Source of the DNA: a virus
Taxonomy: Duplodnaviria > Heunggongvirae > Uroviricota > Caudoviricetes
Virus record (IMG/VR): IMGVR_UViG_2706794664_000016
DNA: 3,801 bases
Strand: one strand, 5' to 3'
Shown here: piece after piece, positions 1 through 3,801 of the stretch
Layout: every line of letters starts with the position of its first letter
Numbering within the stretch: the first letter of the stretch is position 1
Position numbers and translations under genes: made by a program
The notes under the pieces: model-generated
Told to the model about the DNA's origin: nothing
Database searches by the model: none
Seen by the model: the letters and a program-made list of their open reading frames with translations, nothing else

Positions 1-111
1 CCAATGACTAGTCTAAAAACTAGTATTAAGACTATCACTTATTTAAGTGATACTGGTTGTCTGGAGATTCAGGGGGCCAGTCTAATGCGTATTCCTTTAT
101 ACTATCTTTAG
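1..111 (+). CDS. 3' end of an upstream gene of unknown function (frame 1, open from the window edge; C-terminal peptide ...[35 protein letters not shown], stop TAG 109-111); may instead start at ATG 4-6
   Basis: Frame 1 is the only + frame open from position 1. All three minus-strand frames carry stops within 1-110, so no minus-strand gene crosses this region. Too short to assign a function. Confidence 0.35.
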
Positions 112-220
112 AGATAATACAAAGGATACGAATGATCTATTAACTCGCGTTGCTACTCTTGAAACTACCATTGCTGTACTGGAAAGTAGTATTTCCCGTA
201 TTGAGGATGATCAGGATAAG

Positions 221-319
221 ATGAGAGATACACTAAGTAAACTGGAAACACAAATCCATGAACTTGATGTTAAGATTGAAAGGATTATTGCAATTCTTCA
301 GCAGAAACAACGACCATAA
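221..319 (+). CDS. Small coiled-coil peptide, minimal ATG-initiated version (MRDTLSKLETQIHELDVKIERIIAILQQKQRP); the same frame is open from 86 and may be reached by recoding from the upstream gene
   Basis: Frame 2 is stop-free for 78 codons (86-319), unusual in AT-rich DNA, and translates to a heptad-patterned peptide ([55 protein letters not shown]). The only in-frame ATG is at 221, preceded by AGGA. Stop TAA 317-319. Confidence 0.3.
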   Translation: MRDTLSKLETQIHELDVKIERIIAILQQKQRP

Positions 320-357
320 AAAAAGGCATAGTATGTCATTCGTACTATGCCTTTTCT
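318..357. terminator. Bidirectional rho-independent terminator between the small + ORF and the convergent lysozyme gene
   Basis: A-run 318-324; stem GGCATAGTA (325-333) pairs with TACTATGCC (343-351), extendable to about 11 bp with a 5-nt loop; T-rich tract 352-357 continuing beyond. Reads as hairpin plus U-run on both strands. Confidence 0.6.
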
Positions 358-807
358 TTATTTGTTTTTAAGTACTGCAATCATGGAATTCACACGGTTT
401 GGTGTCTGCCTGTACCATAGAGAACACTTAGCCTGTTTAATTGCTTCAAGGTAATCATGTGCTTTCAGGGCTGCTAACATCTTACGGAATTTCTTCACCC
501 CGCCAATACCTAACTGGAAGGTCATGATAATAATAAAATCATTCCAGTCATCGGGAAGATTTAACCCTAATGTCTGTACCTGCATAATTGTTTTGGCTAA
601 ATCGCGAGATAGTAACTTGTCTGCTTCGCTTTCAGTAATGCCAGTACTAAAATCTTCTCCCGCCTGAATTAAGTGACCATATCCAATAGTACTACATCCT
701 AAACTATCAGCATATGGATAGAATTTCCCATTTCTGAAGTACTTCAAATTTGCCTGATACTCTTTAGTACCTTCATATTCTTTTAATCGTGTTTTTAAAT
801 CGCTCAT
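358..807 (-). CDS. T4-type lysozyme (GH24 family endolysin / N-acetylmuramidase), soluble, no signal or SAR sequence
   Basis: 149 aa. TIGYGHL matches T4 lysozyme YTIGIGHL; ITESEADKLLSRDL matches ITKDEAEKLFNQDV; FQLGIGGV matches FQMGETGV; SLWYRQTPNRVNSMI matches SRWYNQTPNRAKRVI. No N-terminal hydrophobic segment. Terminator immediately downstream. Confidence 0.9.
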   Translation of the reverse strand: MSDLKTRLKEYEGTKEYQANLKYFRNGKFYPYADSLGCSTIGYGHLIQAGEDFSTGITESEADKLLSRDLAKTIMQVQTLGLNLPDDWNDFIIIMTFQLGIGGVKKFRKMLAALKAHDYLEAIKQAKCSLWYRQTPNRVNSMIAVLKNK

Positions 808-817
808 TTACTAAATA

Positions 818-836
818 CCTATAATGAATTTATAGG
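818..836. promoter_or_regulatory. Perfect 7-bp inverted repeat CCTATAA-N5-TTATAGG in the 36-bp divergent intergenic region; candidate operator and/or back-to-back -10 elements
   Basis: The left arm contains TATAAT (820-825) on the + strand and the right arm gives TATAAA on the minus strand, each 10-20 nt upstream of the respective start codon (ATG 844 on +, ATG at 807 on -). SD AGGA 834-837 for the + gene. Confidence 0.35.
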
Positions 837-843
837 AATATTT

Positions 844-1278
844 ATGATGAGTGAATGGAAATACTCGGATGATTGGAGCGAGGAGGAAATGTTATCCGGT
901 GAATATGCTGGTTTCGTTTATATCTTTCAGTTTGAGGATGGTTCTAATTATGTCGGTGCTAAGCAAATCTATCAGCGGGTTAAGGATGCGAGAAAGCTAA
1001 AGCCCACTTCAAAGGAAAATGGCTGGCGTGAGTACCTCAGTAGTTCCAATGTCGTTAAAAACAAAATTGAAAATGGTGAACAGTACTCAAAAACGATTCT
1101 ATGGTGCTTCGCAACTATGCGAGAGGTAATGATTGTAGAGGCAATACTGATCCTTCATCAGATGCTTAAACCGGAATGTTTGAATCTGGCAATGATGAGT
1201 AAGATTAGATCACCAAATGCAAAGGATAAAAAAAGACTACTCGGAATAGTACAGGAACTATTGGAGTACTTGAATTGA
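844..1278 (+). CDS. Small acidic-N-terminus protein with a GIY-YIG-like motif (putative GIY-YIG fold nuclease, T4 endonuclease II-like in size); function unproven
   Basis: 144 aa. Motif GFVYIFQFEDGSNYVGAKQ fits the GIY-x(9-11)-YIG pattern, with Arg about 7 residues downstream (R45) and Glu at 94/99 as candidate catalytic residues. Good SD (AGGA, 6-nt spacer). No DNA-binding extension seen. Confidence 0.7.
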   Translation: MMSEWKYSDDWSEEEMLSGEYAGFVYIFQFEDGSNYVGAKQIYQRVKDARKLKPTSKENGWREYLSSSNVVKNKIENGEQYSKTILWCFATMREVMIVEAILILHQMLKPECLNLAMMSKIRSPNAKDKKRLLGIVQELLEYLN

Positions 1279-1287
1279 GGTAAATAT

Positions 1288-1788
1288 ATGGCAAGTGGAA
1301 TAAATGGGATTGGTAGTATAAGGAACTATATACAAACGCAGGGAGTTAGATTAAATAATCAATTCCAGAATGAAATAATTAAACGTTCCAAGCTACTATC
1401 CCAAAGAATGCAGGGTGATTTGAATAATAGCGTTGACCGTGGGGCAGTGGGCTTTACTCAACGTTCCATCCTTTTCTTCTATAGAAAGGTTGGGAGAAAT
1501 TCAGTTACATCGACCATCATGGTTAAAGATATTCAGGCTAAGTACCTTTATCAAGTACTGGTACAGCCAAAGGCAATTGATAAGTTTATACCTACTTCAT
1601 CTACAAGATTAACTAAGCAGGGCAACATTTCAGGACTGAAAAAGAATCTTTTAAGTGAACGATATAAGGTAGTGAAGGGTAAGAATGGTAAAGAACGATT
1701 AATTGATACCGCAAAGAAAGATACCAAGAAGAAAACCAAACGTGTAATTGGCTTACGTGAGAAGAAACAACGTCGCCTTATCTATTGA
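1288..1788 (+). CDS. Hypothetical basic protein with Lys/Arg-rich C-terminal tail (possible nucleic-acid-binding protein)
   Basis: 166 aa. GAGG SD 7 nt upstream of ATG; start lies 10 nt after the preceding stop. C-terminus KKDTKKKTKRVIGLREKKQRRLIY is strongly basic. No TM segment and no recognised motif. Confidence 0.7.
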   Translation: MASGINGIGSIRNYIQTQGVRLNNQFQNEIIKRSKLLSQRMQGDLNNSVDRGAVGFTQRSILFFYRKVGRNSVTSTIMVKDIQAKYLYQVLVQPKAIDKFIPTSSTRLTKQGNISGLKKNLLSERYKVVKGKNGKERLIDTAKKDTKKKTKRVIGLREKKQRRLIY

Positions 1789-1863
1789 CTTCTATAAGGA
1801 AGCCAATGATGGTGTAAGGGTAATTATGAGCGGTATTCAGGGAACATTCAGGATAAGTAGACA

Positions 1864-2175
1864 ATGAATTTTGAGCAACATTATGGTGATTTAATAAGCA
1901 AGATTAAGCTAAATGGCATGACACCAGATGGTAATAGTATGCCAATTAACAAATGTTTTCTTGATAAGAAATTTCAAAAGGTCGTTAAGAAAAGTAATTA
2001 TCAGATTGATAGCTATATGAACGTTATTTATGAGAAGAAGAAAGATTTCAAAGTTGGTGAAGTACTTGAATGGGAATTACAGGGTGAAAAGATGCCTGTA
2101 TTTCTAATTGAGAGTAAAAAGCTCTTTGTGAAGGGTAAACATTTTTGGGTATATGCCGTGGGGATTATTGAATGA
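1864..2175 (+). CDS. Hypothetical 103-aa soluble protein, translationally coupled to the downstream holin-like gene
   Basis: Stop overlaps the next start in an ATGA arrangement (ATG 2172-2174 / TGA 2173-2175). No TM or lipobox. Preceded by the only sizeable intergenic gap in the operon. Confidence 0.65.
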   Translation: MNFEQHYGDLISKIKLNGMTPDGNSMPINKCFLDKKFQKVVKKSNYQIDSYMNVIYEKKKDFKVGEVLEWELQGEKMPVFLIESKKLFVKGKHFWVYAVGIIE

Positions 2176-2465
2176 TTAGTATATTGATTGAGTTTCTGAA
2201 GTCAGGATTGGATTTTTTCATTAAGAAGAAAACTATTGAACAGGAAGTAAAGAAAACGAATGTAGAAGGGCAGATTGAAACGAATAAAGAAGAGATTGAA
2301 AAGGTAACATTCCACTGGCGTAATGCCCTCGGTTTTGTACTAACCCTTATCATTCTCTATAACTGGATCATAGTACCAGTACTTGATGCTTTTGGAATTA
2401 TTGTGATCCAAGTTCCATTAGGACAACTTTTGCAAGTGCTATTGATTATGGTTGGTGGAAGCTGA
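2172..2465 (+). CDS. Putative holin resembling the holin-of-3TMs / GTA-type holin family
   Basis: 97 aa. Charged coiled N-terminal region (EQEVKKTNVEGQIETNKEEIEK) followed by W-R-x3-G-x(8)-Y-N-W-x3-P-x-L-x2-F-G (FHWRNALGFVLTLIILYNWIIVPVLDAFG), which matches my recollection of the conserved core of that family, then a second hydrophobic segment. SD GGGGA 7 nt upstream. Confidence 0.55.
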   Translation: MISILIEFLKSGLDFFIKKKTIEQEVKKTNVEGQIETNKEEIEKVTFHWRNALGFVLTLIILYNWIIVPVLDAFGIIVIQVPLGQLLQVLLIMVGGS

Positions 2466-2525
2466 AAGATTTTTCCTTTAATATGTGTTTTGAGTTAATA
2501 AAATAGCAATCTAAGGATTTGATTT

Positions 2526-3320
2526 ATGAGTGATGCAATTACTACAGCAGCAATAAAAAAATTGTATGGACTATCCGCTGGGCAATGTAATATTTGCCGA
2601 ACTTCTCTTTTTAAAGAGCAGGTTCACATCGGACAAATGGCTCATGTAATAGCCAAAAGCCCAAAAGGACCAAGGGGCGATGACCTGTTAGCAAATGACA
2701 ATTCTTATGAAAATCTTATCCTGCTTTGTGCAAATGATCATATTCTTGTTGATAGAGATCCATTCACTTATACAGTAGAAAAATTGCATCAAATCAAAAG
2801 TGAACATGAGGCTTATATACAGGGTGCAACCGATAATACATTATTTTCAGATAAAAAAAGACAGTCAGATGTGGACTTTTTAAACGCTTACTTCCACTTT
2901 ACACCGTTTGCGAGGGTACGTTCATTAGTTGAAACTTTACCTAATTCTTTTCACATCAATCTTCTTATTTTTGGAGATCAGTTTGATAGTATTTTAAGGG
3001 ATTTTCCAGCGAGCTATCCTTTAAATGATAAATTACTCCACGGTCATTTCCAAAGTTTTATTGATTCGTATAAAAATATTGATTTTATCATATCTGGACA
3101 TTTGCCGATTTCCGATAATAGAAACATTCAGGTGTTTGGTGGTGCGAATCATAATCTTCTTTGTCATTTCAATTATGATGAGCTACCATCCGATAAAGCA
3201 CTGATAATAGAACAAGATTTGATTTCACATAAAATATCTCTTCTTAATGCTTATGAAGGTCTTATAAATTACCTTAGAGCTTATTACCCTGAGGTGGAAA
3301 TTTACTCTCCTATTCTATGA
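2526..3320 (+). CDS. HNH (His-Me finger) nuclease-domain protein with an uncharacterised C-terminal domain of about 185 aa
   Basis: 264 aa. C21-N-I-C24 ... A-H40-V-I ... N63-LILLC68-A-N-D-H72-ILVDRDPF has the spacing of an HNH zinc-finger nuclease motif (CxxC, catalytic His, structural Asn, C...H); the H-x-L-x-D-R tail resembles HNH_2-type domains. Residues 80-264 carry no motif I recognise. SD AAGGA; strong terminator downstream. Confidence 0.75.
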   Translation: MSDAITTAAIKKLYGLSAGQCNICRTSLFKEQVHIGQMAHVIAKSPKGPRGDDLLANDNSYENLILLCANDHILVDRDPFTYTVEKLHQIKSEHEAYIQGATDNTLFSDKKRQSDVDFLNAYFHFTPFARVRSLVETLPNSFHINLLIFGDQFDSILRDFPASYPLNDKLLHGHFQSFIDSYKNIDFIISGHLPISDNRNIQVFGGANHNLLCHFNYDELPSDKALIIEQDLISHKISLLNAYEGLINYLRAYYPEVEIYSPIL

Positions 3321-3336
3321 GTGTTATGAAATATAT

Positions 3337-3361
3337 AAAAGCCCCTTATGGGGCTTTTTTT
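3337..3361. terminator. Bidirectional rho-independent terminator between convergent genes
   Basis: Perfect stem AAAAGCCCC (3337-3345) / GGGGCTTTT (3350-3358), loop TTAT, followed by a T-run to 3361 on the + strand; an A-run precedes it, giving a U-tract on the minus strand. The minus-strand gene's stop codon (3346-3348) sits in the loop. Confidence 0.7.
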
Positions 3362-3801
3362 ATGGTTGTTGTAATAGTAATGGTTTCTTCGTTTTCTCTA
3401 AAAACCGAATGGCTTTGTTTTATTATTTCCCTAACATCTGGTTTCTTTATTTTTTTGTAATTTAATAAAGCCGAAACTAAAACAGAAACAAAAAGTATAA
3501 GTGATACTATACAAATAGTTAAACCTTCTAAAGGTGATAGTTGGGGGTCTATATATAATCCATACATAGAAACAGCGGAGATAGCAATACCGAAAACCAT
3601 CCACATATCTATAGGGCTTTTATTTGTCGATTTGACCGTAGTGTACTTTTTGACTAAGTCCGTACCTGATAGCACTGTTAAAATTAATGATAATATAGCG
3701 AGGGCAGTATTTACATTAAAATTTAGCTTAGCGAATAAAAGCAACATTAGTAAAATAAAAATAAGTAACGCTATGATTAAAAATATTCCTTTCTTGTCCA
3801 T
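3346..3801 (-). CDS. Predicted integral membrane protein with about 4 TM helices and a charged C-terminal tail; function unknown (candidate immunity, exclusion or holin-like protein)
   Basis: 151 aa from an ATG lying exactly at the window edge, so the true start may be further upstream. Four hydrophobic stretches (about residues 6-24, 33-46, 66-84, 94-113), then NYKKIKKPDVREIIKQSHSVFRENEETITITTTIKKAP. Confidence 0.65.
   Translation of the reverse strand: MDKKGIFLIIALLIFILLMLLLFAKLNFNVNTALAILSLILTVLSGTDLVKKYTTVKSTNKSPIDMWMVFGIAISAVSMYGLYIDPQLSPLEGLTICIVSLILFVSVLVSALLNYKKIKKPDVREIIKQSHSVFRENEETITITTTIKKAP

Follow-up and report, generated by a model that had tools for sequence, protein, structure and literature searches.

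The 36-bp gap between a T4-type lysozyme gene and a divergent operon of an enterobacterial prophage is built around a palindrome, which has, in our estimate, roughly an even chance of being a compact two-way gene-start module that resembles the control of T4 gene e and I-TevI, with one hairpin serving two divergent genes. The claim, made by analogy, is that the module would function like the T4 module and not that it belongs to the T4 late promoter class; such membership cannot be claimed because a gp55-type sigma factor was sought and not found. A preliminary description of this DNA had read the palindrome as two overlapping promoters and a possible regulator site. Judged from its sequence, the dyad is most likely also an RNA hairpin that sequesters the ribosome-binding sites of both genes, an aspect absent from that description.

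The prophage and its gene layout

The stretch of DNA that was analysed, hereafter the window, is 3,801 nucleotides long. Bases 85-3801 are 99.9% identical to a prophage present in many Shigella sonnei genomes, e.g. 53G (HE616528.1), in which the prophage copy adjoins mipA, while bases 1-85 are the terminal part of an IS3-family element. When phages, plasmids and E. coli genomes were searched with the window by megablast and blastn, nothing matched apart from the IS end, a single fragment of an E. coli prophage and some distant lysozyme domains. The prophage is a member of an AT-rich family of about 35 kb with a large serine recombinase. The family is without a cultured relative, the top lysozyme match in phage records being below 60% identity, and most of its early genes fall outside any PHROG family.

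The 3' part of a small coiled-coil gene lies upstream of a bidirectional intrinsic terminator at 321-355, a call of the terminator scan, at which the lysozyme unit ends and which insulates that unit from the + strand genes further upstream. An equivalent arrangement was found in the E. coli prophage L001. The lysozyme (endolysin) gene of the ORF list occupies 358-807 on the - strand, with its start codon at 805-807, and encodes a T4-type protein of 149 aa (PF00959, E=1e-11; PHROG lysozyme/endolysin families). The + operon begins with the gene of a 144-aa SegE-like GIY-YIG protein (844-1278; PF19835, E=2e-16), followed on the same strand by two ORFs of no assigned function, a holin-like protein with three TM segments (2172-2465) and an HNH-like protein (2526-3320), and is closed by a second bidirectional intrinsic terminator from the scan (3337-3358). 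The start codon of a divergent membrane ORF forms the final three bases of the window.

The divergent intergenic region at 808-843, between the lysozyme start codon and the start of the GIY-YIG ORF at 844, thus measures 36 bp, as had been described, and contains the whole element. Because this gap is the only non-coding DNA between the lysozyme unit and the + operon, both of which are bounded on the outside by terminators, the promoters of both units are expected in or next to the palindrome. We rejected the possibility that the element is an att, pac or cos site, since the integrase and terS lie elsewhere and the element stands between two start codons.

The palindrome and its fold

The palindrome reported earlier, CCTATAA-TGAAT-TTATAGG (CCTATAATGAATTTATAGG), was found at 818-836; its 7-bp arms are perfect and enclose a loop of 5 nt. 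It is the sole match in the window at up to two mismatches; in shuffled sequences a mean of 0.03 matches was obtained, and one match occurred in 6 of 200 shuffles. The dyad proved longer than had been stated, in that the outer left arm TAAATA (812-817) pairs with the outer right arm TATTTA (839-844), and a 2-nt bulge (AA, 837-838) separates the inner from the outer stem pairs. The extended stem has 13 pairs and reaches the A of the ATG at 844. Between the outer arms are the inner left arm CCTATAA (818-824), whose CC-T complements the lysozyme Shine-Dalgarno sequence AGG(T) at 817-820 on the - strand, the loop TGAAT (825-829), and the inner right arm TTATAGG (830-836), which includes the start of the Shine-Dalgarno sequence AGGA (834-837) of the first gene of the + operon. 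The outer left arm is part of a block conserved in the family, AAATA(n)CC, and the outer right arm is part of a conserved GG(n)TATTT block.

Folding of 800-850 gave -10.5 kcal/mol for the + strand (z -3.5; 0 of 200 shuffles as stable) and -9.1 kcal/mol for the - strand (z -2.9; 2 of 200 shuffles as stable). The stems are AT-rich, and their stability is only moderate. No Rfam covariance model matched 808-843, even at E<=1, and searching the literature for divergent endolysin genes with a hairpin in common gave no result.

The translation initiation regions of both genes fall largely within this fold. On the + strand AGGA at 834-837, the spacer AUAUUU and the AUG at 844 lie within the 3' arm, and the stem pairs AGGA together with A844. 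On the - strand the lysozyme initiation region consists of AGGU (820->817), the spacer AUUUAGUAA and the AUG (807->805), with the Shine-Dalgarno sequence in the 3' arm and paired in the stem (AGGT, 820->817). The internal genes of the operon in the window have no such hairpin at their start sites (z -0.2 and -0.5).

A palindromic stem between an A-run and a T-run, present on both strands, is also the form of bidirectional intrinsic terminators, of which real ones stand at 321-355 and 3337-3358. The dyad could on this ground be a weak bidirectional terminator or insulator against antisense or read-through transcription between the two units; the A-rich 5' flank and the U-rich 3' flank of the stem fit such a role, as do the strong terminator-like hairpins found directly before start codons in relatives (L116 terS, in a region of -27 kcal/mol; L134-L136). 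This role is nevertheless highly improbable. The stem is short and AT-rich with no more than 2 G-C pairs in its inner part, the U-rich run takes part in the pairing within the stem, the element lies between two gene starts and not between ends, and the terminator scan makes no call at the palindrome.

Conservation and covariation in relatives

Relatives were found by a scan with the lysozyme protein and comprise IMG/VR contigs, metagenomes, an E. coli prophage in ybhA and a Phytobacter genome; among the genome contigs the scan gave a single locus. The lysozyme/GIY-YIG junction is represented by about 30 distinct sequence types, in which lysozyme identity ranges from 44 to 100% and GIY-YIG identity goes down to about 41%. 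The junction is 35-49 nt long with the lysozyme gene facing the GIY-YIG gene, which is its divergent partner in all relatives except L053. Fixation at the same position in every family member that has it indicates that the GIY-YIG gene is not behaving as a mobile homing cassette.

The dyad is found at the junction in every one of the roughly 30 types, with RNAfold z-scores mostly between -2 and -7. Its base, with the outer ATAAATA/TATTTAT blocks as the most strongly conserved words, consists of (C/T)ATAAATA, 0-2 nt and CC on the left and of GG, 0-2 nt and TATTTAT on the right. The inner stems vary by type (CCTATAA/TTATAGG, CCTTAT/ATAAGG, CCTTT/AAAGG, CCTCA/TGAGG, TCCATA/TATGGA and others), and the loops range from 4 to 16 nt. 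At inner stem positions 2 and 3, A-T versus T-A pairs were counted in 7 versus 12 and in 9 versus 9 types. Since a MAFFT alignment of the hairpins was structurally inconsistent, pairing was tested by arm-chimera permutation and per-stem pair tallies in place of a column-based test. Native halves folded at a mean of -6.30 kcal/mol versus -4.31 kcal/mol for chimeras, and none of 2000 permutations attained the native stability, the sequence types in these statistics being phylogenetically related. Because the inner stems co-vary and no chimera permutation matches the native set, the dyad symmetry appears to be selected; as read from these sequences, it is neither passive inheritance nor a side effect of AT-richness. 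In L087, from a distant branch, the order of the blocks is inverted, so that ATAAATA/TATTTAT forms the inner stem and CC/GG lies outside it, the Shine-Dalgarno sequences likewise being nearer to the base of the hairpin.

The start codons and Shine-Dalgarno sequences of divergent genes are reverse-complementary by construction, and both genes here use AGG and a U/A-rich spacer. It could be argued from this that the dyad is a geometric by-product of two divergent genes with similar ribosome-binding regions (CAT/ATG, CCT/AGG, AT-rich spacers). The relatives largely contradict this explanation, which is very unlikely. GGTATTT or a near variant occurs at 6 of 55 gene starts in two family prophages, all six at such junctions, and the inner arms that co-vary lie upstream of the Shine-Dalgarno sequences. 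Unidirectional copies in L105 and L110 (in both directly after a terminator) and in L108 keep the 5' arm with no divergent gene, and in L024, L026 and L029 the dyad is kept with the lysozyme Shine-Dalgarno sequence outside it.

A second, degenerate copy of the element was found at the next divergent junction, between a methyltransferase gene and the membrane ORF (L002, 6974-7007), which starts one base past window base 3801. It reads CCATAAGATACC-N18-GGGGTATTTATGG, with the same outer words flanking it, and folds at -14.6 and -13.5 kcal/mol (z -4.9 and -4.0). Its late-promoter-like box is ATAAAATA or ATAAGATA, its inner hexamers are TACAAT, TACAGT and TATAAT, and other members of the family keep the junction with its own co-varying inner stem (GTAC/GTAC, CTA/TAG). 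The element is thus a module that recurs where transcription units of this prophage family begin.

Folded RNA or duplex-binding site

The same dyad symmetry had been proposed to bind a dimeric regulator of both units, a proposal that the relatives do not favor. The span from AAATA to TATTT varies between 23 and 38 bp across types, with loops as variable as described above, and the inner arms are compensatory rather than conserved. A rigid dimeric DNA-binding protein cannot follow such a span together with the inverted block order of L087, whereas a hairpin can.

The mismatches within the stems give a direction to this argument, as they are preferentially G-U on the operon (+) strand and hence C-A on the lysozyme strand. 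G-U pairs number 19 on the operon strand versus 9 on the lysozyme strand, and the mean hairpin energy is -11.3 versus -10.3 kcal/mol (Wilcoxon p=0.045, the types being phylogenetically related). In several types the operon strand is favored by 2-6 kcal/mol; the advantage of the lysozyme strand is at most 2.5 kcal/mol and is below 1 in all but two types. This modest asymmetry points to RNA, presumably on the strand with co-directional transcription of the upstream tail genes.

An operator controlling both units, bound by a phage repressor or activator or by the GIY-YIG protein as an autorepressor, would account for the conservation of the half-sites AAATACC/GGTATTT, for their recurrence at the second divergent junction and some unit starts, and for the 31-34 bp that separate the outer blocks in most types. 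A 49-aa protein that looks by eye like a ribbon-helix-helix protein is encoded beside the integrase in an E. coli relative, and I-TevI is an autorepressor that binds an operator overlapping its own late promoter (PMC2988022). An operator remains quite unlikely, in view of the span and block order already mentioned, and because the inner arms co-vary, including G-U pairs formed on one strand, which a protein reading the duplex would not select. The search for further copies of the palindrome that had been suggested as a sign of a regulon was only partly borne out: an exact second copy was absent from the window and from the complete related E. coli prophage, where half-sites occur at chance frequency only, while the outer arms do recur at junction 2. 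PHROGs and Pfam searches of the early regions of L073 and L131 (complete or near-complete) identified no regulator. Overlapping divergent bacterial promoters with one operator share with the prophage gap a very short, dyad-symmetric control region between two divergent units; the gap differs from them in having no recognisable -35, a variable spacing of the arms, and a covariation that suggests a folded nucleic acid.

If the element is read as a hairpin, it could act as RNA only, without internal promoters, in the form of a translational operator recognised by a phage protein, a thermolabile mask of the Shine-Dalgarno sequence, or a 5' stabilising or processing element of transcripts initiated within the neighbouring gene. 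The coat/replicase operator of MS2 is an example of the first kind. RNA hairpins that proteins recognise typically combine a conserved stem base and a variable top; RNA is also indicated by the covariation and the G-U asymmetry, and the stem includes the Shine-Dalgarno sequence and AUG. This role by itself is doubtful, since it needs promoters inside the neighbouring coding sequences, of which none is evident in the promoter scan, and leaves unexplained why ATAAATA boxes also stand at hairpin-free unit starts (those of L053, of terS and of the gene that comes first after the integrase); moreover, the Rfam comparison was empty and no candidate binding protein was found.

Promoter-like boxes in the arms

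The model preferred here places promoters within the hairpin, and promoter-like boxes were found in the 5' arm on both strands, an outer YATAAATA and an inner TAnnnT, which are candidate promoters by sequence. The -10-like hexamers of the preliminary description are present as noted, with TATAAT at 820-825 on the + strand, and TATAAA at 829-834 (834->829) on the - strand, in the lysozyme direction and without the final T. Most relatives have a TAnnnT-like hexamer directly inside the CC of each arm. The statement that the -35 regions are weak agrees with a two-hexamer sigma-70 scan, which found no promoter (no -35/-10 pair) at 808-843; nor does a TG of an extended -10 precede TATAAT. That both units start in the palindrome is plausible, since the terminators at 321-355 and 3337-3358 leave only the gap and relatives keep TAnnnT; the promoters themselves are putative.

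Two overlapping back-to-back sigma-70 promoters, with their -10 hexamers in the inner arms, could produce a symmetry that is incidental (TATA is self-complementary) and has no role in RNA. The hexamers found inside the CC in relatives, in both directions, are of the expected kind (TATAAT, TATATT, TATAGT, TATGAT, CATAGT, TACAAT, TATTAT, TAAAAT), as are those of junction 2, and the gap is the sole non-coding DNA between two terminators. Such a pair of promoters without more is rather unlikely. The scan was empty, -35 and TG extension are missing, the lysozyme-side hexamer lacks the critical final T, and AT-rich stems nearly always contain hexamers of this kind. Left unexplained are the conserved outer arms, a complementarity that extends beyond TATA (CCTTAT/ATAAGG, CCTCA/TGAGG, GTAC/GTAC), the result of the chimera test, and the unidirectional copies with both arms.

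The outer boxes resemble a different type of promoter. T4-type late promoters consist of an 8-bp box, TATAAATA, located about 20-40 nt before the start codon, and need no -35; they require gp55 and gp33, and their transcripts begin about 6-7 nt downstream of the box. In the window, ACTAAATA at 810-817 on the + strand matches this box at 6 of 8 positions and faces the + operon, and CATAAATA (the reverse complement of TATTTATG) at 839-846 on the - strand matches it at 7 of 8 and faces the lysozyme gene, both as putative promoters. The operon-facing box is C/T/A-ATAAATA in most relatives, and the match reaches 8 of 8 in some, e.g. L012, L015, L020, L037 and L052, although the invariant core across relatives is TAAATA only.

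Similar boxes were found at other unit starts of the family. In L053, where the lysozyme gene comes after a terminator and lacks a divergent partner, TATAAATA stands 31 nt ahead of the ATG without a hairpin. Upstream of terS, gATAAATAc or cccTATAAATA is present in two of four upstream sequence groups, and in a third group a terminator-like hairpin holds the box in its loop and has the terS Shine-Dalgarno sequence as its 3' arm. Two lineages have TATAAATA some 30 nt before the gene that comes first after the integrase terminator, where a -35 could not fit; in L131 a box stands 11 nt after a terminator, again with no space for a -35. In RaK2, the closest cultured source of a similar lysozyme, TATAAATA is located 33 nt upstream. 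Copies of YATAAATA on the gene-direction strand versus the other number 6:0 in L073 and 20:3 in L131-L138, and about half of the ATAAATA copies on the gene-direction strand are within the non-coding part of the prophage, which makes up some 10% of it. The total number of YATAAATA is not above chance (6 found versus 9 expected in L073), and a coding-strand effect could contribute to the strand bias. Some YATAAATA copies overlap TAA stop codons.

A phmmer search with T4 gp55 against all ORFs of the family of at least 60 aa gave no match at E<=10, and the PHROGs and Pfam searches of the early regions mentioned above found no sigma factor; a very remote gp55 homologue in the family is possible. 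The early proteins of L073 had no tblastn match in the other family loci compared. A promoter of a T7-type single-subunit polymerase, suggested by the resemblance that TAAATAC...TATAGG bears to one, was rejected because no such polymerase gene is present. Whether a late-type box or a sigma-70-like hexamer is used, transcripts would start inside the palindrome, with identical consequences for the structure.

Comparison with phage T4

In T4, a hairpin blocks translation of gene e from the long early transcript, while late transcripts start at TATAAATA inside the hairpin, lack its 5' strand and are translated (PMC3014915, in which the original work of McPheeters et al. 1986 on the gene e leader is reviewed). 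The same promoter-in-hairpin design is found at I-TevI, I-TevII, I-TevIII, segB and Aeh1 mobE, which are genes of GIY-YIG or HNH endonucleases (PMC2988022).

The T4 nudE-e spacer is 37 bp long, versus 36 bp in the prophage, and reads ttttaatttTATAAATACCttcTATAAATActtaggaGGTATTATG. As TATAAATACCttcTATAAATActtaggaGGTATTATG it folds at -14.9 kcal/mol, versus -9 to -10.5 kcal/mol for the prophage hairpin. A T4-type lysozyme gene follows in both cases. The layout is also alike: the 5' arm has the box at its base (in T4 the first late-promoter box), and the 3' arm contains the Shine-Dalgarno sequence, the spacer and the AUG. The resemblance extends to the words themselves, T4 having TATAAATACC...GGTATTATG and the family YATAAATA(n)CC...GG(n)TATTTA..ATG, with ATAAATACC...GGTATT common to both. 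In contrast, the T4 element is one-way and lies in a co-directional operon with documented early read-through, whereas the prophage hairpin is common to two divergent genes. The prophage, moreover, is a temperate element of 35 kb with a serine integrase and no detectable gp55 or gp33, and the boxes of the window match at only 7 of 8 and 6 of 8 positions, with start sites that are predicted from sequence.

The hairpins of the T-even homing endonuclease genes are alike in the SegE-like GIY-YIG gene, in the Shine-Dalgarno sequence and AUG in the 3' arm, and in the late-promoter-like box in the 5' arm; the G-U pairs of the prophage family favor the GIY-YIG strand. They differ from the prophage hairpin in that the latter is weaker.

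Proposed mechanism and implications

In the proposed model, the 3' arm on each strand would be the translation initiation region of the gene, composed of the Shine-Dalgarno sequence AGG(A/T), a U/A-rich spacer and the AUG, and the 5' arm, which is the complement of the initiation region of the other gene, would carry the outer YATAAATA box and the inner TATAAT-like hexamer as promoters. Transcripts from either box would start inside the palindrome without the 5' arm and, being unable to fold, would be translated. Transcripts entering from outside would carry both arms, fold, and be translated poorly. An example would be read-through of the terminator at 321-355 from the tail operon, which would run antisense across the lysozyme gene; its hairpin would have 13 pairs at -8 to -10 kcal/mol, bury the Shine-Dalgarno sequence and reach the start codon. 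We infer that such folding of the RNA takes place in vivo. A single element is able to serve the two genes because the reverse complement of a hairpin is a hairpin. Read-through past 321-355 on the + strand from the co-directional tail genes is plausible; in the lysozyme direction there is no evident upstream source of read-through, so that a sequestering hairpin seems unnecessary there.

If the model is true, some 33 nt hold a promoter and a ribosome-binding site for each of the two genes and, in addition, a single structure by which stray transcripts are silenced both ways. This would be an economical insulate-and-restart design for divergent genes and would help to annotate unit starts in AT-rich phages. 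It would also tie the control of lysis genes in an uncharacterised family of prophages of Shigella, E. coli and other enterobacteria to a mechanism whose descriptions have so far come from T4-like phages, and raises the question of what polymerase factor a phage that lacks gp55 would use to read boxes of the TATAAATA type.

A further, speculative extension, which we consider unlikely, is that the whole family is wired with -35-less boxes of the T4 late type, read either by a divergent gp55-like sigma factor in a temperate siphovirus-like phage or by the machinery of a superinfecting T4-like phage. Such wiring, if true, would extend to the boxes before terS and before the gene that comes first after the integrase terminator, as well as to those of the lysozyme gene and the lysis operon. 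With a superinfecting phage, the lysozyme/holin cassette would be a helper-triggered or abortive-infection device, and in both cases the palindrome would be the first two-way T4 e-type promoter-in-hairpin switch. The two genes that flank the palindrome, of a T4-type lysozyme and a Seg-type GIY-YIG protein, belong to the two classes for which T4-e-type control is known.

A second divergent junction and hairpins at other gene starts

A second divergent junction, lying between a DNA methyltransferase gene and a membrane ORF, starts one base past window position 3801, at 6974-7007 of the Shigella prophage locus L002, which extends past the window. The same outer words as in the 808-843 element were found there, CCATAAGATACC...GGGGTATTTATGG, and folding of the junction gave -14.6 and -13.5 kcal/mol. 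The methyltransferase/membrane ORF junction is kept in relatives, where it has its own co-varying inner stem.

Strong terminator-like hairpins are located immediately 5' of start codons in the related prophage loci L116 (1720-1760) and L134-L136 (about 200-4600), with a (T/G)ATAAATA box held in the loop. In L116, the 3' arm of the hairpin contains the terS Shine-Dalgarno sequence AGGAGG, which is followed by T6 and then by the ATG. These hairpins look like stop-and-restart elements. A separate conserved block, GCGnAGTTTCGGCACCG...TTTTAA(A/T)TnTATGTGA, was observed about 60-120 nt 5' of terS in one family group, composed of the prophage loci L092, L095, L105, L108, L110, L112 and L122; this block might act as a promoter, as a site for antitermination or as one related to pac.

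Coding content of the + operon

Compared with other S. sonnei copies, the window carries a one-base insertion (T) at position 1785, which introduces a premature stop. What is a single 192-aa ORF in the relatives is present in the window as two pieces, one of 166 aa (ORF 1288-1788) and the other of 39 aa (ORF 1748-1867). The final gene of the + operon, downstream of the holin-like gene, encodes an HNH-like protein of 264 aa (2526-3320), in which an N-terminal HNH-like motif, CxxC...H...N..H, is joined to a C-terminal part without a family. Its PHROG matches are to PHROGs of unknown function only, and the gene may be a cargo or defence gene.

The interrupted gene at the window start and the prophage family

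Window positions 1-85 correspond to one end of an insertion sequence of the IS3 family; S. sonnei genomes carry identical copies at other sites, as do Stx phages. The element sits inside the prophage 90-aa DUF2730/Rz-like gene, and because of this insertion only the 3' part of the gene (to 319) is left. Intact prophage copies contain a hexanucleotide repeat, AACAAT, of about seven copies just 5' of the DUF2730-like gene (L002 about 10770-10815), and this repeat could be prone to slippage; the window lacks it owing to the intervening IS insertion.

The prophage family with L073 1404-37023 (E. coli ESBLEC_MG48) and L131 is largely uncharacterised. Its G+C content is about 35%, and it has a serine integrase together with homing-endonuclease genes of T4-like type. 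Early genes are very few in this family: a PHROG family was found for none of those in L073, and the sole recognisable product of those in L131 is a NUMOD4-HNH endonuclease. The E. coli member of the family is inserted in ybhA and brings a replacement pyridoxal phosphatase gene.
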